Shown: positions 7,440 to 64,000, counted from the first letter of the stretch. The stretch: 64,000 nt of DNA from Chloroflexia bacterium (GCA_034436115.1 DAOTVY010000045.1:15072-79071), one strand, 5' to 3'. Numbers and translations: made by a program. The notes: generated by a model from the sequence alone, not told the origin.

Positions 7440-7458
7440 CGCTGAACGGGAAAAGCAG

Positions 7459-8998: not shown

Positions 8999-9001
8999 AC
9001 C

Positions 9002-28467: not shown

Positions 28468-28595
28468 CCACAGGCTCCTTACAGGGCCTTTGTTAATTCC
28501 AAGATACTACACTCGAACCCCTTTGTCAAGTCAGGCGGGGCTCCGCTTTACGGCAGCGGAACCCCGCCGAATCCCGGATATGCCCCTGACCGGAG

Positions 28596-30629: not shown

Positions 30630-30660
30630 CGGGGTGTCCTCCTCGAAGCCCCAGCGGCCC

Positions 30661-31680: not shown

Positions 31681-31692
31681 GGGAGCCTCCTC

Positions 31693-32502
31693 TCAGAGGA
31701 TCTTGAGACCGAGCAGCCGATCGGCCAGAGCGGCCGCCTGTTCCTCGGGGGTTGCGCCGCCGATCAGCTCCACTTTCCCGGCGCGTGCCGGTGGGTACTC
31801 CACCCGAAGCACGCGGCTCGGGGAACCTTGCAGGCCGAATCCCGCCGGGTTCGCTCCCGCCGCGACCAGATCGGCCGCCGTCCAAACCGGAACCGGCATC
31901 TTGGACGCCTTTCGGATCCCTAGAAGCGTGGGATAGCGCGGCTGGTTGATGTCTTTGACCACGCTCACCGCCGCTGGGAGCGAGCTTTCCACCACCTCGC
32001 GCCGGCCCTCGAGCAGTCGCTCCACCACGATCTTGCGGCCCACGGGGTCGAGCGAGCGCACCTTGAAGACGAAGGTTAGCGCCGGAATCCCAAGGAAGCG
32101 GGCCACGGCCGGTGCCACCAGCCCGGTCGTCCCGTCCGTAGACTGCTTGCCGAAGAAGACCAGGTCAAAGTCGCCGATCTTGCGGATCGCCTGAGCCAGG
32201 GTATAGGCGGTAGACCAGGCATCCGCACCTTCGAACTGGGGATCGGACAAGAGGATGGCCTCGTCGACCCCCATGGCGAGCGCCTTCTTCAGCGCCTCGG
32301 TCGCTTCCGCGGGGCCCATGGACAGGGCGGTCACCTTGCCACCGAACTTTTCCCGCGCGAGCAGCGCCTCCTCGATGGCGTACTCGTCAAAGACATTCAC
32401 CATCGTCGGCATTCCGGCCAGCAAAAGCTCCCCGCGCGCTGTGTCGACCTTGACCGGGGCCTCCGTGTCCGGCACCTGCTTGATGCAGACGATCGCGTGC
32501 AA
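31693..32502 (-). CDS. etfB: Electron transfer flavoprotein beta subunit
   Basis: 269 aa. MHAIVCIKQVPDTE N-terminus typical of EtfB. Confidence 0.85.
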   Translation of the reverse strand: MHAIVCIKQVPDTEAPVKVDTARGELLLAGMPTMVNVFDEYAIEEALLAREKFGGKVTALSMGPAEATEALKKALAMGVDEAILLSDPQFEGADAWSTAYTLAQAIRKIGDFDLVFFGKQSTDGTTGLVAPAVARFLGIPALTFVFKVRSLDPVGRKIVVERLLEGRREVVESSLPAAVSVVKDINQPRYPTLLGIRKASKMPVPVWTAADLVAAGANPAGFGLQGSPSRVLRVEYPPARAGKVELIGGATPEEQAAALADRLLGLKIL

Positions 32503-32563
32503 TGGGACCTCCTTTCGGGGATCCCCTTCCCTCCCGCTTGCGGGGAGGGAAGGGGGAAAAGCC

Positions 32564-33787
32564 TTATAGTTGCTGAGCTCCCCAGCGGTAGGGGAGGTAA
32601 TCGTTGCCCAGGATCTCGCGGGCGATGATCAGCCGCATGATGTTCGTCGTGCCCTCCGCGCCGATGGAGTAGGAGCGCACGCCCCGGATGCCCATTTCGA
32701 TCGGGAACTCCTTGGAATAGCCGGCGGCCCCGAACCAATCCGCGACCTCGTTCATGGCCTGCCAGGCATAGATCGGCGCGCGCAGCTTGGCCATGGCGGC
32801 CGCCCGGGCGACGTCGAACGCCGTAGCCGATTTGTCCTGCCACATTTTGTCCATCAGCCAGGCGGCCTTGTAGGTGAGCAGCCGGGCCTCCTCGATGTTC
32901 GTGGCGTGCTCCGCCAGCGGGAACTGCACCCCTTCGAAGGCCGCGATCGGCCGGCCGAAGGCATAGCGCTGCTTGATGTAGTCGATGCCCATCTCCAGCA
33001 CCGCTTCGGCTGCGCCGACACAGGTGGCGCCGATGAGCACGCGCGCGGCGGAAAAGCCCTCCATCGCGTAGTAGAAGCCCCGACCCTCTTCGCCGATGCG
33101 GTTCTTGTCGGGCAGGAAAACGTCTTCCAGGGTAAAGCCCCCGGTCGAGATCCCAGCCCGACCCATGTCCTCGATGAGGGTGGTGGAGATTCCGGGGGTG
33201 TCCTTCAGCGGCACAGCAAAGAAGGTGAACCCACGGTGGCCGGCCTTCGGATCCGTGCGACAGAGCGTCATGTGGATGCCACCGAGCCGCTTCGACTCGG
33301 CGACGCCCGAGATGTACATCTTTTCCCCGTTGAGCACCCACCCGTCGCCCTTGCGCTCGGCCTTGGTCCGCGTAGCCCCCAGGATGTCCGAGCCGCCCGA
33401 GGGCTCGGTGGTGGCGATGCCCAGGAAAGCCTCCCCCCTGGTCACGCGCGGGAGGATCTCCTGCTTCAGTTCGGGGCTGGCGTAGTGGTCAAAGACGGAG
33501 CCCCAGGAAGCCATCACCAGGAAGAGGACCGGGATCGCCACGCTGATGTCCGCCCGGCCGAGTTCCTCGGCCGCGATGGCCGCCTCCATCCAGGAAGCGC
33601 CCATCCCGCCGTACTCCTCCGAGACGGTGCAGGCCAGCAGGCCCAGGTCCGCCATTCCCTTGATGACCTCATCTGGGATCTTGCCCTCTTCGTCCATCTT
33701 GCGCACGATCGGTTTGATCACGCTCTGGGCGAAATCCCGCACCGAGGCGCGCCACATCTCCTGTTCTTTGGTAAACGCGAAGTCCAT
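32564..33787 (-). CDS. Acyl-CoA dehydrogenase
   Basis: MDFAFTKEQEMWRASVRDFA... with overall ACAD similarity (GLL/GATEP-like motifs). AAGGAGAAGG RBS. The ORF-track ORF extends to 33838. Confidence 0.85.
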   Translation of the reverse strand: MDFAFTKEQEMWRASVRDFAQSVIKPIVRKMDEEGKIPDEVIKGMADLGLLACTVSEEYGGMGASWMEAAIAAEELGRADISVAIPVLFLVMASWGSVFDHYASPELKQEILPRVTRGEAFLGIATTEPSGGSDILGATRTKAERKGDGWVLNGEKMYISGVAESKRLGGIHMTLCRTDPKAGHRGFTFFAVPLKDTPGISTTLIEDMGRAGISTGGFTLEDVFLPDKNRIGEEGRGFYYAMEGFSAARVLIGATCVGAAEAVLEMGIDYIKQRYAFGRPIAAFEGVQFPLAEHATNIEEARLLTYKAAWLMDKMWQDKSATAFDVARAAAMAKLRAPIYAWQAMNEVADWFGAAGYSKEFPIEMGIRGVRSYSIGAEGTTNIMRLIIAREILGNDYLPYRWGAQQL

Positions 33788-33857
33788 GGCCTTCTCCTTT
33801 CTGGACTGCCAGCGTCCCCCCTCGGGGACTTCGAACACCTTCTTGCCAGGGCCCAGG

Positions 33858-35219
33858 TCACGTCGCGGAAACCGGCCCCACCGTGGCCTGGCCCAGTAGG
33901 GCCACGCCCGCCTCGAGGGCAGCCAGGTTTTCCCGGGCGACCTCGGCCTTTTGTCCCACTGTGATCGCTTCGCGCAGCGCCTCCAGCGGAAGCAGCCCGG
34001 TATCGCCTACCAGCGCCGCCAGCGCCATCATCGCCTGGTCCTTCTTCCCCACCGACGCCAGCGCAAGCGGCACCAGCTGTGCTTCGGTCTCCACCGGAAG
34101 GAGGTCGCTGCGGATGTAGAGGCGCGCCTGCGGCCCAAGGCGTTCGAGCGTCCGCCGCGCCACCTTCAGCCCCTCAGGCGCCAGCACGAGCATGAGATCG
34201 GGGGAGGGAATCCCCGTGTAATGGATCTCCTCGAGGCTGAGGATCACCTCGGAGACCGAATGGCCCGTTTGCACGGTCACCGGGTAGTCGTCCCGCTGGG
34301 TCGCCCAAAGTCCCGCGAGCACGGCCGCTCGACCCAGGATCGTTGCTGTCGAGCGGATCTTCTGGCCGGCCGCCCCGGCGATGACGATATGCGTCTTCTT
34401 GCGAACGCCGCTTTCGTACCGCGTCGGGAGAGGCTGAGGGGATAGCACGCGTTGGCCCGCCTGCGCGGCCACGAGCTCGCGATACGCGCGGCTATACTCA
34501 GCACGCTCCTCGCGGTGGACAATCCCTCGGCTCAAGCCACGTTCCGCCATCGCGGCCTCCAGGCCACGGCGCGTCAGCCGGTTGCTGGGGACAAAGTAAG
34601 CGGTGCACAGTTCCCAGATGTCAAAGAAAGCGAACCCTTCTCCCGCGATCGCCTCCGCGATCCAGTCGCTCAGCTCGGGGTCGAAGGCGGTCGCGCGAAC
34701 CACCAACCGGCCGCCGCTGGCGGCGACGATGCCGCATAGATCGAGCGGGTACTCGAGGTTGCCCAGGCGGGTAGTCGCCGTTGTGGCCCCATGCGGCGTG
34801 GTCACCGAGTGCTGGCCGCCGGTCATGCCAAAGTTAAAGTTGTTCAACAGGAGGACCGTGATCCCGATATTGCGGCGGGCCGCGTTGATCAAGTGATGGC
34901 CACCGATCCCTGCCCCGCCATCCCCCATGATGACCACCACTTTGAGGTCGGGGTTGGCCAGCTTGATCCCACTGGCGTAAGTGACGGAACGCCCGTGGAG
35001 CCCGTGGAAGGCATTGGTGATAAAGTACTGGTCGGACAACCCCGAACAGCCGATGTCGGAGACGATCACCACCTTGCGCGGATCGAGCTGGAGGCGCACT
35101 AGGGCTGCGTTCAGCCGGTCCAACACCAGGCCGTGGCTACAGCCCGGGCAAAACGGGTAGGGCAGGCGGGTGGGATCGAGGTAGGTCGGCCACCGGAGTT
35201 CGCTTTCCACAGCTTCCAT
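33858..35219 (-). CDS. 2-oxoacid:ferredoxin oxidoreductase TPP-binding beta subunit fused to a gamma-like C-terminal domain
   Basis: CPGCSHG...GDGG TPP-binding motifs, with a C-terminal domain resembling KOR/POR gamma. GGAGGAGG RBS before the ATG at 35219; a TTG at 35231 is an alternative start. Confidence 0.7.
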   Translation of the reverse strand: MEAVESELRWPTYLDPTRLPYPFCPGCSHGLVLDRLNAALVRLQLDPRKVVIVSDIGCSGLSDQYFITNAFHGLHGRSVTYASGIKLANPDLKVVVIMGDGGAGIGGHHLINAARRNIGITVLLLNNFNFGMTGGQHSVTTPHGATTATTRLGNLEYPLDLCGIVAASGGRLVVRATAFDPELSDWIAEAIAGEGFAFFDIWELCTAYFVPSNRLTRRGLEAAMAERGLSRGIVHREERAEYSRAYRELVAAQAGQRVLSPQPLPTRYESGVRKKTHIVIAGAAGQKIRSTATILGRAAVLAGLWATQRDDYPVTVQTGHSVSEVILSLEEIHYTGIPSPDLMLVLAPEGLKVARRTLERLGPQARLYIRSDLLPVETEAQLVPLALASVGKKDQAMMALAALVGDTGLLPLEALREAITVGQKAEVARENLAALEAGVALLGQATVGPVSAT

Positions 35220-35237
35220 CGCCTCCTCCAACGCCTC

Positions 35238-36356
35238 TCAGCGCAGGTGGGCCAGGATCTCCTGGGGCGTGATCAGCTCGCCATCCACCCGGTGCACCCC
35301 CACCACTTCGATCCCACGTGCGGCCGCCAACCGCTCGACCTCCAGGCGGTACTGGCCGAGGTTGAGCTCCGCTACGACGACTCGCTCGATCCCTTCGCAC
35401 GCCTCGAGGATGGCGCGCTCGGGTACCGGCCAAAGCGTCAGGACGGTAAGCGCCGAGACCTTTTGCCCATCCTTACGCGCCAGGGCGACCGCCTCGGCCA
35501 TCGCCCGAGCGGTGGTGCCGTAGCTCAGCAACAGTGTCCGTGCGCCCGGCTCCAGATCTGCCTTGACCATCGCGATCTCGTCGCGATAGGCATCGATCTT
35601 GGCGGCCAGGTGTCGGTTCAGCCGCTCTACCTTCGCGGGATCCTTGGTCAGATAGCCAAACTCGTCGTGGGTGGACGTGGTAAAGCGGACGATGTGTGGG
35701 CCCCCGATGGGAGAAAAGAGCGGCACATCCTCGAGGGCCGCGATCCGATAGGGGACAAACGCTGCATCGGGCGGAGCATACCGGCGCGAGGTCACCGGAA
35801 CTGGTTCGTAGGCCGCGACATCGACCGTCGCCCGGGTGAGCACCATTTCCTTATCGGTCGCCAAGAAGACCGGAGTGCGAAACCGCTCCGCAAGGTTAAA
35901 GGCGTGGATGGTGAGGCTGTAGCATTCGGGGATTGTGCTGGGGGCGAGGGCAATGATCGGGTAGCCTCCTGAGGTGCCCCAGCGGAGGAACTGCACGTCG
36001 CCCTGGGCCACTGTGGTGGCGCCCCCGGTGGCCGGCCCCATCCGCTGGCAATCGACGATCACCAGGGGGACCTCGCCCATGACCGCCAGACCGATGTTCT
36101 CGCTATAAAGGCTGATGCCTGGGCCAGAAGTCGCTGTCATCGCCTTGCGACCAGCCATCGCCGCCCCGATGCACAGCCCCAGGGAAGCGATCTCGTCCTC
36201 GGCCTGGATCGCGACCCCCCCAACCTTCGGGAGTTCCCGTAACATATGCACCAGGATACCGGAAGCAGGCGTGATCGGGTAGCCGGCGAAAAAGTCGCAA
36301 CCTGCCGCCAGCGCTCCCCGAGCAATCGCCTCGCTACCGTCGATAAACTCGCGCAT
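35238..36356 (-). CDS. 2-oxoacid:ferredoxin oxidoreductase alpha subunit
   Basis: MREFIDGSEAIARGALAAGCDFFAGYPITPAS is the typical KorA/PorA N-terminus. 373 aa. Confidence 0.75.
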   Translation of the reverse strand: MREFIDGSEAIARGALAAGCDFFAGYPITPASGILVHMLRELPKVGGVAIQAEDEIASLGLCIGAAMAGRKAMTATSGPGISLYSENIGLAVMGEVPLVIVDCQRMGPATGGATTVAQGDVQFLRWGTSGGYPIIALAPSTIPECYSLTIHAFNLAERFRTPVFLATDKEMVLTRATVDVAAYEPVPVTSRRYAPPDAAFVPYRIAALEDVPLFSPIGGPHIVRFTTSTHDEFGYLTKDPAKVERLNRHLAAKIDAYRDEIAMVKADLEPGARTLLLSYGTTARAMAEAVALARKDGQKVSALTVLTLWPVPERAILEACEGIERVVVAELNLGQYRLEVERLAAARGIEVVGVHRVDGELITPQEILAHLR

Positions 36357-36410
36357 GTTCCTCTCCGCTCCGGGATACACGCACCGGAACGCATTCGACG
36401 CAACCGTGGG

Positions 36411-37352
36411 CTAGCGACGCTGGAAGCGTGCTTCCCGCTTTTCCAGGAAAGCGGAGGTGCCCTCGTTCTTGTCCTCGGTGGCACAGATCAGGCCGAACTG
36501 CGCTGCTTCGAAGGCACAGGCTTTTTCGAGCGTGGTTTCCGCCCCGGTGCGTAGGCAACGCTTGGCCACCTCCACGGCGATGGGGCCGTTTCTGAGGATC
36601 TGTTCGGCCATCTCGCGTGCCGCGCTCAGCGCCGTGTTTGGGGCACCGGGGTTGCAGGTGTGGCAGTATCCCCATCGATCGAGCGGAGCGCCGCACTGCG
36701 CACAAACGGTCACCGGCTGTCCACAATTGGGACAGTGCGCACCGTGCTCGCAGGGCGTCCCCCGACAGGGGTTGCCCGGCATCTCCTGGCCGCACCGGTG
36801 GCACACGACCCGGTCGACAAGCCCGATGGACTTTGCCTCCAGGGCGGAGATTTGCTCCCCGGTGAGCACCAATCGCATGGCTTGGCCCATCCCCACGAGC
36901 CGGGGCAGGCGCTGTGACCCACCAAAGCCGGGGATCAGCCCGAGCTTGACCTCCGGCTGCCCCAGACGGGCGTTGTCCGAGGCGATGCGGATGTCGCCCG
37001 CCATAGCGAGCTCACACCCCCCACCCAGAGCGAAACCGTTCACCGCCATGAGCACCACGAGCCGCGAGTTCTCCATCTCGAAGAACAGCTGCTCCGCACG
37101 CCGGCACATCCATTCCCCCGTTTCGGGGGTGAGCAGCCTTAGCTCGTTGATGTCCGCACCGGCGACGAACGACTTGGGACCTGCTCCAGTCAGGATCAAT
37201 ACCCGAACCGACTCCTGGGCCTGGACCTCGTGGAAAGCCGAGATCAGCTCGCCGACCGTGGCGTGGTTGAGGGCATTGAGCACTTTGGGGCGATTGATCG
37301 TGATGACGGCCACCTCGCCGTCGACCTCGAGCGCGATGTTCTCGTAGACCAT
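36411..37352 (-). CDS. Enoyl-CoA hydratase/isomerase (crotonase) carrying a ~55-aa zinc-ribbon-like insertion with multiple CxxC pairs
   Basis: ITINRPKVLNALN...GGGCELAMAGD crotonase core. Insertion VCHRCGQEMPGNPCRGTPCEHGAHCPNCGQPVTVCAQCGAPLDRWGYCHTCNPGAP lies between the catalytic core and the C-terminal helices (approximately nt 36639-36803). Confidence 0.75.
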   Translation of the reverse strand: MVYENIALEVDGEVAVITINRPKVLNALNHATVGELISAFHEVQAQESVRVLILTGAGPKSFVAGADINELRLLTPETGEWMCRRAEQLFFEMENSRLVVLMAVNGFALGGGCELAMAGDIRIASDNARLGQPEVKLGLIPGFGGSQRLPRLVGMGQAMRLVLTGEQISALEAKSIGLVDRVVCHRCGQEMPGNPCRGTPCEHGAHCPNCGQPVTVCAQCGAPLDRWGYCHTCNPGAPNTALSAAREMAEQILRNGPIAVEVAKRCLRTGAETTLEKACAFEAAQFGLICATEDKNEGTSAFLEKREARFQRR

Positions 37353-37459
37353 CGCTTCCTCCTCCGTTGGCTGGGAGCACCTGCGCACCTGGCGGCCATT
37401 ATACCCGATTTCCGCCGTTTGGCAACTCTCTACGGCAGAACGTGAAGGATCACACAATA

Positions 37460-37488
37460 TTGACAGCGCCGCCCAAACGCGCTATAAT
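37460..37488 (+). promoter_or_regulatory. Consensus promoter TTGACA-N17-TATAAT for the gntR operon
   Basis: Perfect hexamers with a 17-nt spacer, read directly. Lies in the divergent intergenic region between the crotonase operon and gntR. Confidence 0.55.
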
Positions 37489-43008: not shown

Positions 43009-44429
43009 GGCGCATTCGGTTGCCCATACCGCACCCGAATCCCCCTGCGCCGGCATCGGGGCCGGTCCGCTCCGTTCACTGGGCCCCGCTGGCCGCAGTG
43101 CTGCTAGGAACGTTCCTGGGAACCGTTGCCAACAGCTCTTCGAACGTAGCCTTGCCGTCCGTGGCGGCACAGCTGGGAGAACCGCTCGAGCGGAGCGTTT
43201 GGGTGGTCTCCCTGTACCCGCTCACCTTTGCTGTCCTCCTCCCACTGGGCGGTTATCTGGTGGATCGGGTCGGCATCCGTTGCACGTACCTCCTGAGCGT
43301 GGGGCTGCTCACGCTGGGAGCTCTGGGCTGTTCCCTGGCCCCCTCGCTTCCCTGGCTACTCGCCTTCCGCATCCTTCAGGGAATCGGCGCCGCCCCGATC
43401 GTGCCTGTGGTCATGGCCGTGGCCGGGCGGTACATCCCGCGGGACTACCGCGGCCGCGCGACCGGCTACTGGGCGCTGGCCAACAGCGTGGGACACGCGG
43501 CCGGGCCACCCCTGAGCGGCGTCCTTACCCAATATGCGGGCTGGCGCGCCGTTTTCTTCCTGGGCGTCCCGTTGGGGATAGTGAGCATCTTCCTGGCGTG
43601 GCGCAAGCTTCCTCACGATGCTCCCGGACATCCCCGGCCTTTCGACCCGGCTGGATCCCTGGCCCTGATGGTCCTGGCGCTGGCGGGCCTGCTCGCCCTG
43701 CAGACGGGCGTGCGCGCCGGCGGCACGTCACCCGATACGCTCACCTACCTCGCCCTGGCAGCCACGGCTGCGGTCGTACTGGCGCTCGCCGAGCGGCGGG
43801 CCGCCTCGCCCGTCTTGGGCCGACATCTCCTTTCGAACATCCCCTTCGTGGCCTCGATGGCGGTGCTGGCCGCCCAATTCTTCTGCCTCTTCGGGCTTCA
43901 ATTGACGCTCCCTGTCTACCTCATCCAGGGAAGGGGCTGGGCAGCAAGCACCGCTGGCGCCTTGATCCTGCTCCTGCCACTGGCTACCGCGGTGGTTTCC
44001 CCGGCCGCCGGCCGCCTGGCCGACCGCTGGGGCGTCCGGCCGGTGTGTACTTGCGGCGTACTGCTTGCCAGCGCGTCCGTCTGCCTGTTCTTGTTCTGGC
44101 AAGGGTCTACCGCTTGGTGGACGTTCGGACTGGGGCTGATCGCTTTGGGTGCCGGTATGGGCCTGGCCCAGTCGCCCGCGGCCTCTAGTGTGGCCCTACT
44201 TGTCCCTCCCGAGGAACTGGGAGTCGCTACCGCCATCTTTCACATGGCGCGTTTCTTGAGCGGGAGCATCGGCAGCACTCTCTTCGGCCTCTGGATGGCC
44301 CGGGCCCCGACCCCTTCCACCGGCCTCCACCGCAGCGCCCTGGCCGCCCTCATCGTCTTCGGCGCCGCTTTCCTGGCTGCCCTCCAGACGCCCCGTCGGC
44401 CCCGAGGAAGCATAGACCCGCCGGTGTGA
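43005..44429 (+). CDS. MFS transporter
   Basis: 12-TM topology. LGGYLVDRVGIR and GRLADRWGVRP MFS loop motifs. The GTG start is inferred. Confidence 0.7.
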   Translation: MRRIRLPIPHPNPPAPASGPVRSVHWAPLAAVLLGTFLGTVANSSSNVALPSVAAQLGEPLERSVWVVSLYPLTFAVLLPLGGYLVDRVGIRCTYLLSVGLLTLGALGCSLAPSLPWLLAFRILQGIGAAPIVPVVMAVAGRYIPRDYRGRATGYWALANSVGHAAGPPLSGVLTQYAGWRAVFFLGVPLGIVSIFLAWRKLPHDAPGHPRPFDPAGSLALMVLALAGLLALQTGVRAGGTSPDTLTYLALAATAAVVLALAERRAASPVLGRHLLSNIPFVASMAVLAAQFFCLFGLQLTLPVYLIQGRGWAASTAGALILLLPLATAVVSPAAGRLADRWGVRPVCTCGVLLASASVCLFLFWQGSTAWWTFGLGLIALGAGMGLAQSPAASSVALLVPPEELGVATAIFHMARFLSGSIGSTLFGLWMARAPTPSTGLHRSALAALIVFGAAFLAALQTPRRPRGSIDPPV

Positions 44430-44526
44430 TATAATGGTTTTGTCTTCCGCCGGCGTGCGCCCTCAGCACTTGCGGACGCGTCACAACATCATCTTCCGGT
44501 CCGGTACCACACCAGGAGGTAAACGG

Positions 44527-45657
44527 ATGACTTCCCCAGGACGAAAGGACCAGGCAACCGCTCCGCCACCGCCCGCGCTGCCTCCCGACCCGGCCCACTG
44601 GTCGCTCGGTGACGAAGCGCAACGGGAAGCTCTCCTGCCCCTGCTGCTCCAGGAACTTGCTTCTTCCGTTCCCTCGCGTCGCGCCCGAGCAGCGGAACTC
44701 CTCGCCGAGGCCGGAGCGGATGAGGCCGTCCCGGCGCTGTACGAACTGCTGCGACGCGAGCGCGACCTGAGCGTCCGCTGCCAGGCACTCCGGGCGTTGC
44801 ACCATCTGGCTGGAACAGCGGAGGCGATCGAGGGCCCCTCTGCCGAGGAACTCGCTGCCTGGAAAGACGAGCTGCTTGCGGGCCTGGTGGAGCAACTGCA
44901 GAGCATCGCTCCGGCCCAGCGTTGGAGCGCGGCCGAAGGGCTTGGCCGCCTGGGCGACCCGCGCGCGGTCCCTGCCCTCGTGGGAGCCCTGCGTGATCCC
45001 CACGCCTTCGTGCGTTGGACGGCTATCCAGGCCCTGGGGGAAATTGGCGCCCCCGAGACGGTGGCCCTCCTCCTGCCGTTGCTGGAGGAACCAGACCCGC
45101 TCATCCGTCGAAGCGCGGTCGATGCGTTGGGCCGCTTCGATACGCCGGAATCCCGGGAGGCATTGCGCCGTGCTCTGCGCGACCCCGATCCCACAGTACG
45201 CCGCAACGCGATCGACGCCGTCGCCCGCCTCCAGGATACCGCGGCGGTCGATGCCCTCGTCCTGGCCCTCGACCCGCGAAACGGACTGTGGCTTCGCTAC
45301 AGCGCGGCGGAGGCCCTGGGCGTTGTGGGCAATCACCGGGCCGTCGCTCCGCTGATCGAGGCCGCCCAGGACCCCCAGGTGCTCATCCGCCGCGTCGCCG
45401 TGCGCTCTCTGGGCCTCCTGCACGACAGCCGGGCCATCCCAACCCTTGTCCGCGCACTCCGGGATCCCGATCCTCAGGTGCGCCTGCACGCGGCGGAGGG
45501 GTTGGGCCACATTGGGCACGAGGGGGTCGTCCCGCAGCTCAAGCAGCGGACAAACGACCGGAGCACTGTGTTCGGCCGGCGGGTCGGTGACGCCGCGCGC
45601 GAGGCCATCCTGTCCATCCGCGCACGCACCGCTTCCCAGAGCGAACCTGGGACCTGA
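44527..45657 (+). CDS. HEAT/PBS-lyase-type repeat protein
   Basis: About 10 tandem 31-aa repeats of the pattern R..A..ALG.IG...AVPALI..L.D.D..VR. AGGAGG RBS. Confidence 0.65.
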   Translation: MTSPGRKDQATAPPPPALPPDPAHWSLGDEAQREALLPLLLQELASSVPSRRARAAELLAEAGADEAVPALYELLRRERDLSVRCQALRALHHLAGTAEAIEGPSAEELAAWKDELLAGLVEQLQSIAPAQRWSAAEGLGRLGDPRAVPALVGALRDPHAFVRWTAIQALGEIGAPETVALLLPLLEEPDPLIRRSAVDALGRFDTPESREALRRALRDPDPTVRRNAIDAVARLQDTAAVDALVLALDPRNGLWLRYSAAEALGVVGNHRAVAPLIEAAQDPQVLIRRVAVRSLGLLHDSRAIPTLVRALRDPDPQVRLHAAEGLGHIGHEGVVPQLKQRTNDRSTVFGRRVGDAAREAILSIRARTASQSEPGT

Positions 45658-45768
45658 GGACACCGCTTCAGGTCGGAAGCCCTTCCCCCAAAAAGGCACC
45701 CAAGAAGGGGATACCGCTTGACAGCCCTTCCCCCAGGCCTGGGAAGGTGGCCCCAACCGCACACGCGC

Positions 45769-49872: not shown

Positions 49873-50236
49873 TGAACCCCCTCCGCATGGGCATTGCCTT
49901 TTTCTATTCTACAACACCGAGCCCGCCTGGGCAACCGGTTCCCACTGGGGTTCGGACAAAAAGAACCGATCGCCCCTTGTCCCAACTCCTGTTGAACTTC
50001 AGGTTCCCAAACTTTGGCTGCCCTTCTGCCAACTCAGGATGCGCGAAACATCCCCTCCCTTCAGGACGTCTTGCTACTGATGCGTGCGCCTCGCGACGGG
50101 TTCCCACCGGATTTGTAGGGAAACAGTGGGCAAGCCGCCTTGACGGGTCCCCCTCCGGCCGCTATCATGAAAATCGCCCGTCGGGCAACTTGCGCGGGGC
50201 CGATCGGTGCGCGGGCAAAGAAAGGAGGAGAAAACG

Positions 50237-53200
50237 ATGCGCGTGCCGAAAGCCGTTTCCATCCTTTCCCTCCTCGTATTCCTGGCAACGCTGATCCCGG
50301 GCGTGACTTCTGCCCGCACCCCCCCACCGCCCGAGACACCCATCCCAACTTCCCCCGGTCCCCCTCCAGAAGTTGACCCGCAGATCCTCACGGAGATGGA
50401 CCTTTCTGCGAACGGCACCACCGGATTCTTCGTCCGATTCCGGGGTCGCGCAGACCTCTCTGCTGCCGCCCAGATCCCCGATTGGAAGCTCCGGGGCCGT
50501 TCCGTCTATGAAGCGCTGCGCGCGGTCGCCGAGCGCTCCCAGAAGCGCGTGCGTGCCTTCCTGGACGCCCGGGGCATCCCCTACCGCGTGTTTCTCACGA
50601 CGAACTCGATCTTCGTGACCGGGGACAAGGAACTGCTCCGCGAACTGGCGGCTTTCCCCGAGGTCGAAGCTTTCCGCGCCAACTATACCCACCCGCTGGA
50701 ACCGATCGAGCGCGGGGCTGAAGTCAACGCGCCCGTCGGCCCCTCCTGGAACATCGTGCTGGTCGGCGCGGACCGCGTTTGGAGGGACTTTGGCGTCCGT
50801 GGCGACGGCATCACCGTGGCCAACATCGATACCGGCGTCGAGTATACCCACCCGGCGCTCTTCCCGAACTACAAATGCGGCAGCGGCCCCCACGACGATT
50901 GCTGGTACGATCCCTCCGCGATCTGTCCTCCGGGGCAGCCGTGCGACAACGTCGGGCACGGGACACATACGATGGGCACGATGGTGGGCGACGACGACCC
51001 GACCCTTTCCTATAACGTCGGAATGGCCCCCAACGCGCAGTGGATTGCATGCAAGGGATGCGAAGACTGGTCCTGTTCCGACTTCGCCCTGAACGCCTGC
51101 GCCGATTGGATCCTTGCCCCCAACGGCAACCCCGATCATCGCCCTAACGTCGTGAACAACTCCTGGGGTGGAGGTGGATGTCAGGACTGGTACCGCACCG
51201 CGGTCGAGGCCTGGCGGGCTGCGGGCATCTTTCCCGCTTTTTCCGCCGGAAACAGTGGTCCAGGGTGCGGAAGCCTTGGTTCCCCTGGGGATTACCCGGA
51301 ATCTTTTGCCTCGGGAGCAAGCGACGCGGATGACCAAATCGCCGGCTTTTCCAGCCGTGGCCCCTCCTGCTGGGGCGAGATCAAGCCTGAGGTGGCCGCG
51401 CCCGGCGTGGACGTCTGCTCGACCGTCCCTGGAGGAGGCTTCGAGTGCACCGGCTGGTCGGGCACCTCCATGGCTAGCCCGCACTCGGCTGGCCTGGTGG
51501 CGCTTCTGTGGAGCGCGAACCTCTCCTTGATCGGGAACATCGAAACCACCGAGCGCCTGATCACCTCCACCGCCGTCTGCCGAACGGACCTTTCCTGCGG
51601 CGGCGAGGAGTGCCACAACAATGTCTACGGCTGGGGACGCATCGACGCTTATGCCGCAGTCCAACTGGTCGTCTCTCAGGGATATCTCGAGGGATACGTC
51701 CGCGATGAAAGCGGAACCCCCTTGGGCGGTGCCACCATCCTCGCCCGGCGCCGGACCACCACGATCACCGGCTATACCGATCCCACGGGCTACTATACGA
51801 TGTCCCTGCCGGCCGGCACGTATACCGTTACCGCCGCGCTCTACGGCTACGCCCCACAGACCGTGACCGGAGTCGAGATCATCACCGATACAACGACGAC
51901 CCAGAACTTTACGCTGACCGCCGTTCCCTTCTACCAGGTATCGGGTACAGTCATAGACGCCGGGGGCGGCTGGCCGCTCTACGCCCAGATCGCCATCCAG
52001 GGCGACCCCATCTCTCCCCCGCCCCCCTACGATGCGATATGGACCAACCCTCTGGATGGCTCCTACAGCATTACCTTGGCCGCAGGCATCACCTACACGT
52101 TCCACGTGCGGCCCTGGTCCAAGGGCTACCTGGAGGAAAGGCGACCAGTCGGCCCGTTGACCGGCAACGAAGTCCAGAACTTTGCCCTCCAGGTCGATGC
52201 CGAAGCCTGCATTGCACCGGGCTATCGCCCCAATTTTGCCTACTACGAGGATTTCGAGGCGAGTGACGGGGACTTTAAAACGCTCGGCTCGACCTCCTGG
52301 GCCTGGGGGACACCGACGAGCGGTCCCGGAAGCGCCCACTCTGGCCTGAACGCCTGGGGAACGAACCTGAGCGGGAATTACAACAACGCCGAGGACGGCT
52401 ACCTGGTTTCCCCACCTATCGACCTGAGCGCCTATGCCGGCCAGGGGTTGTATCTATCCTGGTGGCAATGGTTGCAGACCGAGTGGTGCTGCGACTTTGC
52501 TTCCGTCGAGGTGAGCAACGACGGGGGACAGACCTGGCGGCTCATCTATGGCCAGGCCGCCGGCAACGTTGATTTGGTCTGGACGAGACACTGGGCCTTC
52601 CTCGACCCCTCGTATGCGGTCGCAGACTTTCGACTGCGCTTCCGCCTCTATACGGACTGGTCCGTCACCTACCCGGGGTTCTACATCGACGATGTCGGCA
52701 TCCTTCCACTGCCCCTCACGACCGTCTACAGCGAGGACTTTGAAGCAAGCAACGGCGGCTACACCACCCGTGGGAATACTTCGTGGGAATGGGGCACCCC
52801 GACCAGCGGCCCAGGCAGCGCTCACTCCGGCAGCAACGTCTGGGCGACCAACCTGGAGGGCAATTACGGGCCAAACGAGAACGGCTATTTGGAGTCGCCC
52901 GAAATCGACCTGAGCGCCTACGCCGGCCAGGACCTCTACCTCCTATGGTGGCAATGGCTCCAGACGGAGTACCTCTTCGACTACGGGAGTGTCGAGGTGA
53001 GCGCGGACGGCGGCGCGACCTGGCAGCGCGTGTACGGCGAAACAAGTGGCAACGTCGACCTGGCCTGGAGGCAGCGCGGCGCCGTGCTCGACCCCTGGTT
53101 CGCCACGGAACATTTCCGGCTGCGCTTCCGGCTGCGCTCCGATCGCTCGGTCCACTTCCCGGGCTACTACGTAGATGACGTAGCCATCGCCGTTTCCCCA

Positions 53201-56200
53201 CCGGTGGTGCTCGCCTGCAACGCGCAGCAGGGAGGCCTAGTGCTCGGCAACGTCTACGACCTGAACAACGGGACACCGCTGGCGGGTGCCTGGGTGGTGA
53301 ACGACAGCCGACAGATGGACCTCGCACGCTACACCCCCGACCCGGCCGAAGACGATGCCTTCTATCTCCTCTTCTCGCCTTCCGGGTTCCACTTCTTTAC
53401 CGCCACCATGGCTGGCGGGTATCGTCCCGATGTCGAGCTGGTCGAGGTCCCCTTGGGCGGTGTGGTGCGACAGGACTTTCAGTTGGCCGCCGGGCGGCTG
53501 GAGGCTTCTCCCCACGGGCTTGCCGTCACGCTCGATATGGGACTCTCCACCACCCTCCCCTTGACGCTCCACAACACCGGCTCGGCGGCGGCCCAGTTCG
53601 CCGCGCGCGAAAGCGACCGGGGCTTTGTCCCGGCCATCACGAGCCTCCCACCGAGCGGAGAGCCGTTCAGCGCTCCGGCACCGGTCGGGCCGCTTTCTGT
53701 GCGGAGCGCCGAAGGACGTGCGGCCCTCTCCGGGATGGCCCACCCACTCGCCTGGAACGGCGCCAGCCCGGTGCCCGGTGGGGTGGTCCGCTACGCGCAT
53801 GCTCAATGCCCGGGCGAGAAGGATTCCTTCTACGTGATCTCGGGAGTGGACGGTTCCTTTCGCGTGACGGCCAACACGTGGCGTTATGATGCCCAGACGG
53901 ACACCTGGACGCCGCTCGCTCCCCTCCCCGCTCCCCAGGAGGGGCCGATCGCGGTTTGCGACGAGGGCCGCATCTACGTCATGGGCGGAGGCGGAACGAA
54001 CCAGTTCTACATCTACGATATCGCCTCCGATACCTGGAGCGCCGGCCCCGCCCTACCACGCAATGTCTGGGGCGCTGCCGCCGGCGTATGGAACGGCCGC
54101 ATCTACCTGATCGGCGGGGACGACGACTTCTGGTTCGGTGGCACTTCAGACCGGGTGGACATTTACGACATCGCCTCCGGACAGTGGATCGGCACCGGAC
54201 CATCGATGCCCTATCCCGCGTTCGCCATGGGCTTTGTCCAGGCCGGCCCTTACCTCTACATCGTCGGCGGCTGGAACGACAACTACCCGCAGAACTTGGA
54301 CAAGACCCAACGGTTCAACATGGAAAACGGCACCTGGGAAATCGGCCCTACCTTCACCAGCGCGCGCGCGGACATGGCCCTGGCCATCACGAGCCAGTAC
54401 CTCTACGCCATCGGAGGCGATGCCAACGGGGGCAGCCCCTTCGACCCCTCGGCCACCGTGGAGCGGCTCGATTGGACCGCCTGGCCAGGGGGGACCTGGA
54501 GCGAAGTGGGTGAACCTCTGCCTCGCGCCTATACCTCCAACAACGCGGGCTATTGCACGGAGGCTCGGAGCGGGGGCGAGGTATGGAGCGTCGGCGGCTA
54601 CGACGGAGGCGCCATCGTCGGGGACACCTGGTACCGGCCGTCCGAACCCTGCTTCAGCCTGGATGTACCCTGGCTTTCCGTTGTGCCGATCTCCGGTACT
54701 GTGGATGTGGCCGGAAGCCTGGTGCTGACGGTCACGTTCGACGCCGGCGTGCCCGAGGTCGATCAGCCCGGGAACTACTACGCCACTCTCTCCTTCGCCA
54801 ACGATACCCCGTACGGCTCGGTCGCTGTCCCGGTGACCCTCACTGTGCCGGCGCCGGCTTCCTGGGGAAGGCTCTCGGGCACCGTCTATAGCCTGGGCTA
54901 CTGCGATGCCCATACGGCTACCCTGGCCGCTCAGATCCTGATCGAGAGCTCGTCCGGTCAGACTTGGACCGTGCGGACGCGCCAGGATGGGACCTACGTT
55001 CGCTGGCTGGAAGCCGGGACGTACACGGTGACCGTGTCTGCCCCGGGGCACCTGCCCCAGACGGATGTGCTCGCTCTGGAGGCCGGGCAGTCGGTGGTCC
55101 ATGACGTCTCCCTGCGCCTGAACCAGCCCTGCGCGATCCTCGAACCGGCCGCGATCGAGATCTCCCTCCCATACGGCACCGGGACCTACACCCACCCGAC
55201 CGGCCTGACGCTCTTCAACCGAGGGGCCCAGGAGCTGACCTTCGCCTTCCGCGAGTTCAGCGGTTCCCTGGGCCTCGCCGGGGGGACCGTCGAGTACCTC
55301 CCCGAGCCCCACGCCGGTAATCCCACCGCGCTGCTGCATAACGGTCCCATCCAGGGATCCCTCTCCCGCCGGCCGTACGTCTACCATGTGCCCGGGGTCC
55401 AGCAGTTCAACATCATCGCCTACGCCGACGACGACCAGCACGTTCCCACCGCGGTCGAGCTCGCCCTGCAGGGCCTCGGACTTCCCTATACCTTCTACGG
55501 CTATGACCCTTACGGAGACAACCTTGGGCGCTTCCGCGATGCAGTGGAACAGGGCGGCTGGGACCTGGTCATCCTGGCGGCGGAGACCTGGTCGTTCGTC
55601 GATGCGAGCGAGTACACAGCAGTGCAGCACCATCTGGAGTTGGGTGGGCTGGCCATCGTCCAGTCCTGGGCGGTGGGTGTAGATCCGGCCCACCAGGACC
55701 ACCCGCTCTGGGCGCTCTTGGGCGGGCAGTATGCGGGCTGGCTGAACACGCCTGCCCCCCTCTACTGGTGGGATGACGGCCATCCGCTATTCAACGTCCC
55801 GGAGCAGGTGCCCGAATTCACCGATCTGAACGACTTGGGGTACTGGGCCTACGGCGCACGGATGACCCTGCTCGGTGGACCGGAAACCGGGTTGGGCGGC
55901 TTCACCGAACAGCCTGCAGAGGGCCAGGCCGGCGTCATCCTGCGCGAGGACTGGACGGCGATCTACAAGGGCCTGACAGACAACCTGAACTCGGCCGACC
56001 GGGACGCCGATGGCAAGTGGGATGCGAGCGAATGGTGGACGAACGCCGTGCAGTTTCTCCTCTATCCACCGAGCGAGGTACCCTGGCTGTGGGTTGACCC
56101 GATCAGCGGCACCGTACAGGCCGATAGCAGCGTTCATGTGGACCTCTATGTCACCGGTGTCCTGACCGAGCCTCTGCCCGTTGGCACTTACACGGCAACG

Positions 56201-56314
56201 CTGCTCCTTTCCTCTAACGACCGCATGGCCGGCTCCATCCGTGTCCCCGTCGTCCTGCGCATCTATCGCTATCGGATCTACCTCCCGCTCATCTACCGGG
56301 GACAGGCGCCCTAG
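50237..56314 (+). CDS. Secreted multidomain subtilase (peptidase S8), 2025 aa: signal peptide, I9-like propeptide, S8 catalytic domain, CarboxypepD_reg-like domains, two tandem MAM-like (choice-of-anchor J-like) domains, a 6-blade Kelch propeller, Ig-like domains, an unknown ~450-aa region, and a C-terminal RIYLPLIYR tail
   Basis: Catalytic triad motifs IDTGVEYTHP (Asp), HGTHTMGT (His), GTSMASPHSAG (Ser). Signal peptide MRVPKAVSILSLLVFLATLIPGVTSA. Kelch repeats (YVMGGGG, YLIGGDDD, YIVGGWN, YAIGGDAN, WSVGGYDG). AAAGGAGGAG RBS. Confidence 0.85.
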   Translation: MRVPKAVSILSLLVFLATLIPGVTSARTPPPPETPIPTSPGPPPEVDPQILTEMDLSANGTTGFFVRFRGRADLSAAAQIPDWKLRGRSVYEALRAVAERSQKRVRAFLDARGIPYRVFLTTNSIFVTGDKELLRELAAFPEVEAFRANYTHPLEPIERGAEVNAPVGPSWNIVLVGADRVWRDFGVRGDGITVANIDTGVEYTHPALFPNYKCGSGPHDDCWYDPSAICPPGQPCDNVGHGTHTMGTMVGDDDPTLSYNVGMAPNAQWIACKGCEDWSCSDFALNACADWILAPNGNPDHRPNVVNNSWGGGGCQDWYRTAVEAWRAAGIFPAFSAGNSGPGCGSLGSPGDYPESFASGASDADDQIAGFSSRGPSCWGEIKPEVAAPGVDVCSTVPGGGFECTGWSGTSMASPHSAGLVALLWSANLSLIGNIETTERLITSTAVCRTDLSCGGEECHNNVYGWGRIDAYAAVQLVVSQGYLEGYVRDESGTPLGGATILARRRTTTITGYTDPTGYYTMSLPAGTYTVTAALYGYAPQTVTGVEIITDTTTTQNFTLTAVPFYQVSGTVIDAGGGWPLYAQIAIQGDPISPPPPYDAIWTNPLDGSYSITLAAGITYTFHVRPWSKGYLEERRPVGPLTGNEVQNFALQVDAEACIAPGYRPNFAYYEDFEASDGDFKTLGSTSWAWGTPTSGPGSAHSGLNAWGTNLSGNYNNAEDGYLVSPPIDLSAYAGQGLYLSWWQWLQTEWCCDFASVEVSNDGGQTWRLIYGQAAGNVDLVWTRHWAFLDPSYAVADFRLRFRLYTDWSVTYPGFYIDDVGILPLPLTTVYSEDFEASNGGYTTRGNTSWEWGTPTSGPGSAHSGSNVWATNLEGNYGPNENGYLESPEIDLSAYAGQDLYLLWWQWLQTEYLFDYGSVEVSADGGATWQRVYGETSGNVDLAWRQRGAVLDPWFATEHFRLRFRLRSDRSVHFPGYYVDDVAIAVSPPVVLACNAQQGGLVLGNVYDLNNGTPLAGAWVVNDSRQMDLARYTPDPAEDDAFYLLFSPSGFHFFTATMAGGYRPDVELVEVPLGGVVRQDFQLAAGRLEASPHGLAVTLDMGLSTTLPLTLHNTGSAAAQFAARESDRGFVPAITSLPPSGEPFSAPAPVGPLSVRSAEGRAALSGMAHPLAWNGASPVPGGVVRYAHAQCPGEKDSFYVISGVDGSFRVTANTWRYDAQTDTWTPLAPLPAPQEGPIAVCDEGRIYVMGGGGTNQFYIYDIASDTWSAGPALPRNVWGAAAGVWNGRIYLIGGDDDFWFGGTSDRVDIYDIASGQWIGTGPSMPYPAFAMGFVQAGPYLYIVGGWNDNYPQNLDKTQRFNMENGTWEIGPTFTSARADMALAITSQYLYAIGGDANGGSPFDPSATVERLDWTAWPGGTWSEVGEPLPRAYTSNNAGYCTEARSGGEVWSVGGYDGGAIVGDTWYRPSEPCFSLDVPWLSVVPISGTVDVAGSLVLTVTFDAGVPEVDQPGNYYATLSFANDTPYGSVAVPVTLTVPAPASWGRLSGTVYSLGYCDAHTATLAAQILIESSSGQTWTVRTRQDGTYVRWLEAGTYTVTVSAPGHLPQTDVLALEAGQSVVHDVSLRLNQPCAILEPAAIEISLPYGTGTYTHPTGLTLFNRGAQELTFAFREFSGSLGLAGGTVEYLPEPHAGNPTALLHNGPIQGSLSRRPYVYHVPGVQQFNIIAYADDDQHVPTAVELALQGLGLPYTFYGYDPYGDNLGRFRDAVEQGGWDLVILAAETWSFVDASEYTAVQHHLELGGLAIVQSWAVGVDPAHQDHPLWALLGGQYAGWLNTPAPLYWWDDGHPLFNVPEQVPEFTDLNDLGYWAYGARMTLLGGPETGLGGFTEQPAEGQAGVILREDWTAIYKGLTDNLNSADRDADGKWDASEWWTNAVQFLLYPPSEVPWLWVDPISGTVQADSSVHVDLYVTGVLTEPLPVGTYTATLLLSSNDRMAGSIRVPVVLRIYRYRIYLPLIYRGQAP

Positions 56315-62515: not shown

Positions 62516-64000
62516 TCAAGGACTCGTCCGTCGGATCAGCGGCAGGTAGACGCGGTGCGGGACGGAGCACCAGACGCTCACGCTGCCCGAGAAGGTGTCC
62601 TGCTGAGCGGGTACGCAGTTGCTCACCGTTAGGGTGAAGGGATAATTGCCGGGCCAGCCAAACTCGACCGTCGGGGTCGGCTCCGTCCGGACCCCGAGAG
62701 GCCCCAGATCCCACGTATAGGAAAAAGGCGGCGTTCCCGACAGTCGCGCGGTAAAGGTGACCGTGCACCCGCTGGTGGCCGTCACCACATCGAGGATCTG
62801 CACCGGCTCACACCCCGCGATGTGGAAAAAGACCGCCGTGAAGGGACCCCAGTAGCCATCCTGGGAGCGGCCATGCACCAACAAGTAGTGGACCCCTGGT
62901 GTGAGCCCCTCGGTATCCACCGTGGCCTGGACCGGTTCTACGATCTCGTCAAAGGCGCCGTCCAGCGGGGCCAGCGGCAGGCCCGTTCCATCCGCTCCCG
63001 GGGCATCGATAAAGTATTCCGCCGCGGCCACGGGTCGCTCGGGCACCGAGCAGTCGGAGTTCTGGATGCGATGGTCCTCCAGGGTAGCGGAAAGCAGGAA
63101 CGGCTCGCCTGCGGGCACCGGGTCCGGGGAAACAGAGAGGGTATGGGCATCCGGCCCGTAGACGGTGGTATAGGGGTCCGGAGCAACGATCTTGGCGGCG
63201 TGCACGAAGGCAGGCAGGTTCTCCTCCCAGATATCCCAGGGGAATTCGTTCCCCCAGCAGGCCTGGAAGAAATCTTCCCCCATCTCGAAGGTGAACGAGG
63301 CCACGCCCCGATCGCCGTAGAACCAGTCGTCGGTCGTGCCGTTGGGGTTGTACCAAAGCACCTCCCCTGGCCGGCCGACCTCGTAGCCATTGTAGGTCGC
63401 CCATTTGCACCCGATCGCGCGCAGTGCCGCATCGTCCGGTGCCGGTTCTGGGGCATTGTAACTCCAGGGGATCAGGATCGCGTTCCAGTAACTGTGCAAC
63501 GTCAGCATCATCCCCGTCGTGTCCGCCGGCTCCGGGAACAGCTGTGTTCCGAGCGACTGGATGGCCTGCGTTTCGGGCTCGGATGCCGCAGCGACGCCGC
63601 GATACCCCTGAGCGCAGGGGTCCGAGGTGGAGCCACTGTTGTCGTAGGCCCACATGTAGGCATAGTTGCGGTTGATGTCCACCCCGTAGTGGTTGTACGC
63701 CGTTGGCGGCCAGGCACAGCCGGGGTTCACGCTATCGTTGGTGTTCTTCCGCCACCACCAGCCTGAAGGCTCCACCATCTTCCGGCCGTCGGGGTTGACC
63801 AGGGGAACCACCCATACCTCGCGGTGATCGACCAGCCAAGTCACATCTGGGTCGACGCCATACCCACCGGCACCCCGGAAACCACCGGTGAGGTAATCGA
63901 TGAAAAAGTCGGCCACCTCGGGCACGACCATTTCCCGGGCATGGTGCTCCGAGACGATCAGTAGGGTGGGTTTGGGCCCGGGAATCGCTTCGTTGGTGAT
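62516..64000 (-). CDS. M14-family zinc carboxypeptidase (partial; the N-terminus lies beyond the window end) with C-terminal PKD-like domain and RVYLPLIRR tail
   Basis: SEHHAREMV (HxxE zinc motif) at the window edge; M14 core; C-terminal beta-rich domain; ends ...VPHRVYLPLIRRTSP. Confidence 0.75.
   Translation of the reverse strand: MTNEAIPGPKPTLLIVSEHHAREMVVPEVADFFIDYLTGGFRGAGGYGVDPDVTWLVDHREVWVVPLVNPDGRKMVEPSGWWWRKNTNDSVNPGCAWPPTAYNHYGVDINRNYAYMWAYDNSGSTSDPCAQGYRGVAAASEPETQAIQSLGTQLFPEPADTTGMMLTLHSYWNAILIPWSYNAPEPAPDDAALRAIGCKWATYNGYEVGRPGEVLWYNPNGTTDDWFYGDRGVASFTFEMGEDFFQACWGNEFPWDIWEENLPAFVHAAKIVAPDPYTTVYGPDAHTLSVSPDPVPAGEPFLLSATLEDHRIQNSDCSVPERPVAAAEYFIDAPGADGTGLPLAPLDGAFDEIVEPVQATVDTEGLTPGVHYLLVHGRSQDGYWGPFTAVFFHIAGCEPVQILDVVTATSGCTVTFTARLSGTPPFSYTWDLGPLGVRTEPTPTVEFGWPGNYPFTLTVSNCVPAQQDTFSGSVSVWCSVPHRVYLPLIRRTSP

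Follow-up and report, generated by a model that had tools for sequence, protein, structure and literature searches.

Human site-1 protease (S1P, also called SKI-1 or MBTPS1) provides a precedent for an S8 protease that carries both a beta-sandwich and a GIFT domain, the latter described as a GIFT subdomain of the GldG/IFT52/OST type (PMC11231238), and a characterised subtilase with an appendage of this fold therefore exists. In bacteria, the M6 metallopeptidase InhA and secreted proteases of the bacillopeptidase F type have an InhA-like MAM jelly roll (PF20773), and giant proteins of Chloroflexota (Anaerolineae, Ardenticatenaceae, Ca. Amarolinea) and Actinomycetota, named 'S8 family serine peptidase' by NCBI PGAP and JGI, combine S8, CarboxypepD_reg, InhA-like MAM and Kelch domains. 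Here we describe a 2025-amino-acid protein with the same content, encoded in a 64,000-nucleotide stretch of DNA from an uncultured Chloroflexia bacterium (GCA_034436115.1 DAOTVY010000045.1:15072-79071), the whole of which is called the window below. Our computational analysis indicates that this window protein is probably a Sec-exported, modular S8A protease that is held at the cell envelope and used for scavenging, and that two of its large C-terminal modules are nested within split immunoglobulin-like (Ig-like) domains.

The comparison with these systems is instructive. Unlike the window protein, S1P is a eukaryotic, membrane-anchored and highly specific processing protease that lacks MAM, Kelch and CarboxypepD_reg domains; its GIFT domain follows the sandwich, whereas the GIFT-like domain of the window protein is nested in an Ig-like domain, and outside the S8 domain sequence similarity between the two is undetectable. 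The resemblance may thus reflect convergent domain recruitment. InhA likewise differs, in that its catalytic domain is that of a metallopeptidase, its MAM-like domain is single, and Kelch and GIFT-like modules as well as a tail of the kind described below are absent, although one relative of the window protein (P0071) is annotated by JGI as 'subtilisin family serine protease/bacillopeptidase F (M6 metalloprotease family)'. A homology search returned at least 4,383 significant matches among 8,000 candidates scored, and the best 120 of these, hereafter the relatives, were used for comparison. They are mostly 1,100-3,300 amino acids long, belong largely to Anaerolineae, other Chloroflexota and Actinomycetota and, where named, are called 'S8 family serine peptidase' or 'subtilisin family serine protease'. 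The window protein is therefore an ordinary member of a large and already annotated family, with an architecture typical for that family.

The gene is a single uninterrupted open reading frame (ORF) at 50207..56314 on the + strand, in which the ATG at 50237 gives a product of 2025 amino acids. Repeats were found by windowed BLAST of the protein against a self-masked copy (self-BLAST), and modules were mapped by jackhmmer onto the 120 relatives. Together with matches to Pfam and NCBIfam profiles, AlphaFold2 (AF2) models and the splice test described below, the following features were recognised (window coordinates, strand, feature and amino-acid range, evidence):

50222..50231, +, strong ribosome-binding site, Shine-Dalgarno AAAGGAGGAG, upstream of the ATG at 50237; read from the sequence
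50237..50314, +, Sec-type signal peptide, 1-26, MRVPKAVSILSLLVFLATLIPGVTSA then R; read from the sequence
50315..50767, +, Pro-rich linker and propeptide-like region, 27-177; ortholog conservation, position and size
50768..51670, +, Peptidase S8 (subtilisin, S8A-type) catalytic domain, 178-478; PF00082, PDB sequence matches and motifs
51680..52222, +, CarboxypepD_reg spacers c1, 482-562, and c2, 575-662; PF13620 (E 6.8e-31, two stretches), self-BLAST and jackhmmer map
52238..52723, +, InhA-like MAM copy 1, 668-829; PF20773, 70-72% identical to copy 1 of orthologs
52724..53206, +, InhA-like MAM copy 2, 830-990; PF20773, 72-75% identical to copy 2 of orthologs
53234..53491, +, CarboxypepD_reg spacer c3, 1000-1085, which opens supermodule 1; self-BLAST against c1 (32% identity, E 1.7e-6) and jackhmmer map
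53492..53686, +, N-terminal half of Ig-like domain a (BACON/HYDIN-type), 1086-1150; splice test
53759..54646, +, six-bladed Kelch beta-propeller, 1175-1470, inserted in Ig-like domain a; Pfam Kelch families and blade motifs
54656..54856, +, C-terminal half of Ig-like domain a, 1474-1540, starting DVPWLSVVPISGTV; BACON_2 positions 42-84, 41% identical to 1943-2009
54866..55120, +, CarboxypepD_reg spacer c4, 1544-1628, which opens supermodule 2; self-BLAST against c1 and jackhmmer map
55124..55312, +, N-terminal half of Ig-like domain b, 1630-1692, followed by a low-confidence linker; spliced HYDIN-like match and AF2 strands
55379..56071, +, GIFT/ThuA-like domain of the class-I glutamine-amidotransferase (GATase1) superfold, 1715-1945, in Ig-like domain b
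55997-56032, +, EF-hand-type loop DRDADGKWDASE, 1921-1932, before the last helix of the GIFT/ThuA-like domain
56072..56266, +, C-terminal half of Ig-like domain b, 1946-2010, starting EVPWLWVDPISGTV; self-BLAST against 1466-1537, AF2 strands and Foldseek
56267..56314, +, 'YLP-box' ultrashort putative sorting tag RYRIYLPLIYRGQAP with the stop codon; NCBIfam NF053834/NF050076

The catalytic head of this chain is readily recognised. PF00082 matches amino acids 189-467 over profile positions 1-288 of 288 (E 1.6e-43; 149.5 bits against a cutoff of 21.8), and the catalytic set is complete in the order Asp-His-Ser, with D198 in NIDTGV, H241 in GHGTHT and S411 in GTSMASPH, while N339 (SAGNSG) supplies the oxyanion-hole Asn. 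Searches of the PDB with phmmer matched the domain to Vpr, Tk-subtilisin and subtilisin BPN' (E 1e-27 to 1e-22). It is also the best-conserved module of the protein, being 94% identical in an ortholog from a Chloroflexota metagenome-assembled genome (MAG; locus L002) and 79-82% identical in four further relatives (P0002-5). Judged by its sequence, the window protein is an S8A subtilisin-type protease that is predicted to be active. Ahead of the S8 domain, the signal peptide shows by eye a basic n-region, a hydrophobic core of ~17 residues and a small-x-small TSA cleavage motif, and cleavage is predicted after MRVPKAVSILSLLVFLATLIPGVTSA. The region that follows, amino acids 27-177, retains 55-82% identity to orthologs. 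Because its position and size suit a subtilase prodomain, and because a phmmer match to pro-subtilisin E (3whi) begins at query residue 104, it probably serves as the N-terminal prodomain.

Several lines of comparison speak for the integrity of the gene. The L002 ortholog is 2023 amino acids long and 86.9% identical over its full length with two gaps, and the four relatives P0002-5, whose modules follow one another in identical order, share 61-64% identity over 97% of the length; they differ from the window protein by a divergent last cassette and by two additional PKD domains at the C-terminus. Since the full-length architecture is common to orthologs, a frameshift or a fusion of two genes could be ruled out. 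The initial description of a giant secreted subtilase of 2025 amino acids, made from the sequence in a first-pass annotation, accordingly holds: the ORF is intact, there is a signal peptide and the S8 domain has its full catalytic set. So does the view that the architecture is repeated rather than single, Pfam returning S8, CarboxypepD_reg, InhA-like MAM (twice) and Kelch. A JGI metagenome protein (P0001, sample 3300027863) departs from the window protein by one substitution, D1847E (window 55775-55777), which lies within the conserved YWWxxxHPxF segment of the GIFT/ThuA-like domain.

Downstream of the S8 domain the protein is organised as a chain of beta-sandwich spacers, of which c2 is recognised from the second Pfam CarboxypepD_reg stretch and the jackhmmer map. 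The first of the large insertions in this chain is the Kelch propeller, whose six blades had been recognised at the outset and are borne out by Pfam: Kelch_6 (E 1.8e-23, 82.1 bits) and Kelch_1 (E 8e-22, 76.9 bits) match in four stretches each, and several Kelch or propeller families together cover amino acids 1184-1408. In the sequence itself, Y-x-x-G-G blade motifs occur at 1199, 1247, 1290, 1341 and 1390, with VWSVGG in the sixth blade. The annotation had further proposed that a duplicated Ig-like module of ~60 amino acids brackets a C-terminal region of unknown family. The repeat itself is real, amino acids 1466-1537 and 1943-2009 being 41% identical (E 1.4e-7), but the bracketing must be reinterpreted, in that each copy of this 'PWL...' repeat makes up the second half of a split Ig-like domain, into which either the Kelch propeller or the GIFT/ThuA-like domain is inserted.

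This conclusion comes from a splice test, in which the insert was removed and the two Ig halves were joined and scored against Ig profiles. With the Kelch propeller removed (C-terminal half taken as 1476-1542), domain a matched BACON_2 in one stretch over positions 2-84 of 94 with 32.1 bits (cutoff 25), whereas the C-terminal half alone scored 19.1 bits over positions 42-84 and the N-terminal half alone matched no BACON- or HYDIN-type profile. For domain b, AF2 places beta strands of the N-terminal half at model residues 8-50 and of the C-terminal half at 326-385, and Foldseek matches the latter to the PapD-like domain of HYDIN (2e6j) with probability 1.0. The model of the whole second unit has a predicted template modelling score (pTM) of 0.74, and Foldseek recovers from it both a PapD/HYDIN-type Ig fold and a GATase fold. 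Among the relatives, 124 pairs of Ig pieces have no recognised module between them; 7 of these are contiguous and form an ordinary Ig domain of ~105 amino acids, while the other 117 are separated by 148-345 amino acids. One natural uninterrupted homolog, P0074 2686-2791, scores 29.2 bits. Because the spliced halves match end to end and contiguous pairs exist in relatives, sequence comparison and models together indicate that the Kelch propeller and the GIFT/ThuA-like domain are nested insertions in loops of BACON/HYDIN-type Ig domains. Such nesting also accounts for the 'half' Ig domains and unannotated gaps seen by domain scanners.

The C-terminal region of ~450 amino acids that had been assigned to an unknown family proved to be composite, consisting of spacer c4 (1544-1628), an Ig piece (1630-1692), a linker and a domain of ~230 amino acids. 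The claim therefore stands in part: amino acids 1700-1948 have no significant Pfam match, but the first ~150 amino acids of the region are CarboxypepD_reg and half an Ig domain. A sequence search of the PDB with the ~230-residue domain gave a chance match only (E 1.4), and single-member profile searches gave faint matches to DUF4159 (E 0.082), ThuA (E 0.12) and DUF2194 (E 0.0036), none of them significant. An AF2 model built from a 15-sequence alignment of family copies (pTM 0.86; predicted local distance difference test, pLDDT, 80.7) was more informative. Its fold comparison scores were 14.2 for 3rht, a GATase1-like protein; 13.7 for 2gk3 (STM3548); 12.5 for the ThuA-like 4jqs; 12.4 for the GH42 beta-galactosidase 3tts, a chain that includes the catalytic domain too; 11.5 for OST48 (6s7o_G); 10.9 for IFT52 (5fms); and 8.8 for human site-1 protease (8uw8). 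In this model the domain has the alpha/beta fold of GATase1, and its kinship to GIFT, ThuA and DUF4159 is one of fold.

The alignment suggests in addition what this domain does not do. No column of the 15-sequence alignment holds Cys or Ser at a frequency of 80% or more, and the position expected for the nucleophile elbow, at the end of a strand, varies among S, I, Y, G, V, A and T. A catalytic GATase or peptidase role was ruled out on this ground. In place of a nucleophile the family has a signature of its own, comprising YADD, GG, YWWxxxHPxF and an EF-hand-type DxDxDGxxDxxE loop before the last helix, through which the domain probably binds Ca2+. Given the lack of a conserved Cys or Ser and the presence of this signature, we infer that it is a non-catalytic binding or interaction module. 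The same signature sets the subfamily apart from other GATase1-like, ThuA-like, DUF4159 and GIFT (GldG, IFT52, OST48) domains, as does its occurrence mostly in very large secreted multidomain proteins. In an exhaustive profile search of 1.84 billion proteins the domain was matched in 1,197 cluster representatives, of which 269 had E<=1e-30; the carriers are mostly 1,000-4,500 amino acids long, with up to six matched stretches per protein. A family of this size that has no Pfam model could receive one.

The two MAM-like domains tell a different story from that first told about them. That ~160-residue MAM-like domains stand in tandem, with the boundaries and peptides then reported, proved accurate: PF20773 matches in two stretches (55.3 bits against a cutoff of 26.9), a local hidden Markov model also recovers both copies, and the copies are 64% identical overall (63-72% in BLAST segments, E down to 4e-51). 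The first-pass annotation took this identity as the mark of a recent internal duplication, which the comparative data contradict. MAM-like domains occur in 73 of the 120 relatives, as a tandem pair in 52 of the 73 and in three copies in 2, and for 101 of 104 MAM copies the nearest neighbour is the copy at the same position in another protein. Because the copies of the window protein resemble the same-position copies of orthologs (70-75%) more than each other (64%), the duplication must be old. Nucleotide identity between the two copies is 65% over all codon positions and 48% at third positions, which, together with the nearest-neighbour result, shows that their 64% identity reflects constraint rather than youth. 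Both a recent duplication and gene conversion of the pair were ruled out by these two observations. As judged from these sequences, the MAM duplication is ancient and predates the diversification of the family.

Across the 120 relatives a common plan emerges, S8-c-c-(MAM)1-2-{c-i-X-i}n, where c is CarboxypepD_reg, i an Ig piece of 50-65 amino acids and X a Kelch propeller, a GIFT-like domain, a second S8 domain or another insert. The order and number of the inserts vary, the Kelch propeller preceding the GIFT-like domain in 5 of the relatives that have both and following it in 6, while others carry three Kelch units, a second S8 or DUF4394/DUF6923 inserts. In P0032, P0033, P0035 and P0043 a second or third S8 domain occupies the X position, so that even a protease domain can nest in the split Ig. 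Domain-by-domain identities are moreover mosaic: P0002-5 are 53-82% identical to the window protein from the S8 domain through c4 and 36-47% identical in the last Ig[GIFT] unit, whereas P0018 and P0024 are 55-56% identical in S8 and 58-59% identical in the GIFT-like domain. This mosaic pattern suggests that paralogue lineages have exchanged the last cassette.

The protein ends in a short tail, RIYLPLIYRGQAP, that corresponds to the NCBIfam 'YLP-box putative sorting motif'. NF053834 (ultrashort_CTERM) matches residues 25-34 of the 38-residue tail with 13.6 bits (cutoff 10). In every Chloroflexota-type relative examined the tail follows the consensus hydrophobic-[YF]-L-P-[LI]-[IVL]-x-[KR], with 4-9 residues after the Pro, and the strict YLP pattern is found in 62 of the 120 relatives; actinobacterial members lack it. 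Over 530 kb, comprising the window and related loci, the pattern stands at 22 ORF ends where ~0.09 would be expected from its internal frequency, although 1 of the 22 is probably a spurious ORF opposite a real gene. Carriers include FG-GAP, M14-PKD and Ig-like proteins, and because unrelated proteins in other Chloroflexota MAGs end in the same tag, the YLP-box is, by sequence, a putative lineage-wide C-terminal signal on unrelated, probably exported proteins. The tail was at one point considered an undescribed motif, an idea that was dropped as NCBIfam already curates it; our literature search found no paper describing it.

A second carrier lies ~6 kb downstream of the protease:

62516..63931, -, M14 carboxypeptidase with a PKD domain and the tail HRVYLPLIRRTSP, cut by the window end; Pfam

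The full gene encodes 654 amino acids (L001 22280-24244, - strand), and its tail lies above both NCBIfam cutoffs (NF050076, 19.2 bits; NF053834, 17.6 bits). This neighbour and its YLP-box tail are kept at the L002 locus, where the protease ortholog is 87% identical. Two nearby secreted hydrolases in one window thus bear the tag. In other Chloroflexota MAGs carriers are encoded at L006 6736-8364 (+), L009 16052-17137 (+), L019 21138-22490 (-), L026 4257-8483 (-) and L022 8246-17266 (+); they comprise a seven-repeat FG-GAP protein, Ig-like proteins, two proteins without a Pfam match and a 3006-residue multidomain protein. In P0010 the last ~35 amino acids hold two consecutive YLP-like boxes, RLYYLPLVLNNSGGVIWTRIYLSMAFRNSGP, the terminal one being degenerate with YLS for YLP, and this may be a duplicated or decaying tag.

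In classical C-terminal sorting signals such as LPXTG, PEP-CTERM, GlyGly-CTERM and PGF-CTERM, the motif is followed by a transmembrane helix and a basic tail. The YLP tail has neither, and we know of no sorting enzyme for it. If the nested cassettes and the tail are taken together, it is conceivable, though we hold this tentatively, that the CarboxypepD_reg-Ig[X] unit acts as a display cassette with the split Ig as its socket, and that the YLP-box marks an uncharacterised envelope-sorting pathway of Chloroflexota. In that event recombination at the conserved Ig halves (for example at the ...DVPWL... junction) would give surface proteases of Chloroflexota new combinations of binding specificities, the socket would take Kelch, GIFT-like, second S8 and DUF4394/DUF6923 inserts alike, and the sorting pathway would recognise an ultrashort C-terminal peptide without a transmembrane segment.

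Considering the protein as a whole, we think that the following sequence of events is the probable one. The protein would be exported by Sec and then activated by removal of the prodomain as an S8A endopeptidase, whose S8 head precedes a long series of beta-sandwich spacers of the CarboxypepD_reg and Ig-like kinds. These spacers would bear four non-catalytic globular modules, namely two MAM-like jelly rolls, the Kelch propeller and the GIFT/ThuA-like domain, and their CarboxypepD_reg-Ig[X] supermodule appears to have been multiplied within the family and swapped between paralogues. The YLP-box would most likely direct retention on, or attachment to, the cell envelope, while the MAM, Kelch and GIFT-like modules would hold polymeric (glyco)protein or matrix material close to the active site. 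The resulting peptides could pass to other products encoded in the window, namely the M14 carboxypeptidase with its YLP tag, a peptide-binding protein and the enzymes of acyl-CoA/2-oxoacid catabolism, in a putative nutritional role. Cell-surface display, which had been suggested from the outset for a substrate-capturing protease, is made plausible by the C-terminal tail, which matches a putative sorting motif already catalogued. Several observations nevertheless weigh against this scheme. Our literature search found no experimental work on any family member, and ligands for the MAM, Kelch and GIFT-like modules are not assignable from sequence. Amino acids 27-177 have no Pfam match at E<=0.01, the spliced domain b gives a weak match to HYDIN_VesB_CFA65-like_Ig across the junction (16.2 bits), and the tail of the giant protein scores 14.9 bits with NF050076 (sort_motif_YLP), 0.1 below the cutoff of 15. 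The flanking genes (SecG, an FAA hydrolase and an AI-2E transporter upstream; ScpA/ScpB downstream) are unrelated housekeeping genes that give no operon-level support.

The question of where the mature protein resides bears most directly on the alternatives. It could be a freely released, soluble extracellular protease whose C-terminal modules and YLP tail serve solely for export and folding, or are removed by autoprocessing, as in many secreted subtilases. With 4-9 residues past the Pro and no hydrophobic stretch that could span a membrane, the tail cannot anchor the protein by itself; a search across the window ORFs for a sortase, rhombosortase or exosortase-like gene found none; and NCBIfam labels the motif 'putative'. 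Release into the medium is equally compatible with these data. Yet ~1,500 amino acids of appended modules are 79-92% identical in the 87% ortholog and kept throughout the family, which argues for a role in the mature protein, and the tag also occurs on non-enzymatic repeat proteins (FG-GAP), which is more easily explained by a localisation signal than by a processing site specific to proteases. We accordingly regard free release as rather unlikely. Improbable in our view is a structural or adhesive surface protein, that is, an S-layer- or sheath-associated adhesin in which the S8 domain would serve mainly self-maturation or envelope remodelling. Most of the mass does lie in beta-sandwich, propeller and jelly-roll modules typical of adhesins, NCBIfam detects similarity of amino acids 475-589 to the Kustd1514 S-layer glycoprotein family (E 6e-15, far under the model cutoff), and Vpr, the closest solved S8 protein by sequence, was solved in fibril form (8jmw). 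The S-layer similarity is however limited to generic CarboxypepD_reg repeats, the S8 domain is the most conserved module with its catalytic set intact, and the genomic surroundings and lineage suit peptide scavenging. As for a bifunctional hydrolase, in which the GIFT-like domain would be a second catalytic centre (a cysteine or serine peptidase or amidase of the C26/C56/S51 type), the variable elbow position and the absence of a conserved Cys or Ser make it very improbable, and the best structural matches of the domain are non-catalytic GATase1-like, ThuA-like and GIFT proteins. For filamentous Chloroflexota living in biofilms, sludge and sediments, giant secreted S8 peptidases of this kind are probably a central means of scavenging protein. 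The nested Ig[X] cassette, the GIFT-like family outside Pfam and the YLP-box are all under-described, and their recognition should be useful for annotation even if it holds little surprise for specialists.

Elsewhere in the window two ORFs of 506 and 472 amino acids with high G+C content at third codon positions, at 20810-22330 (+) and 44350-45768 (-), have no Pfam match at E<=1e-5. Genes with recognisable products include a family-5 peptide-binding protein (SBP_bac_5) and a cluster with 2-oxoacid:ferredoxin oxidoreductase, acyl-CoA dehydrogenase, electron transfer flavoprotein (ETF) and enoyl-CoA hydratase. The latter belongs to a run at 25735-37481 (-) that encodes a flavodiiron-like protein, an M23 peptidase with LysM, a CCG/Fe-S oxidoreductase, ETF alpha and beta, acyl-CoA dehydrogenase, 2-oxoacid:ferredoxin oxidoreductase subunits and enoyl-CoA hydratase, and that is consistent with amino-acid or acyl-CoA degradation. 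Overall, the gene context fits an anaerobic, peptide-scavenging Chloroflexota bacterium. An anaerobic lifestyle of the source organism is indicated by a carbon monoxide dehydrogenase/acetyl-CoA synthase (CODH/ACS, Wood-Ljungdahl) cluster at 3091-10351 (+), which comprises Prismane/CODH, the ACS beta subunit and two CdhD-type corrinoid Fe-S protein subunits.

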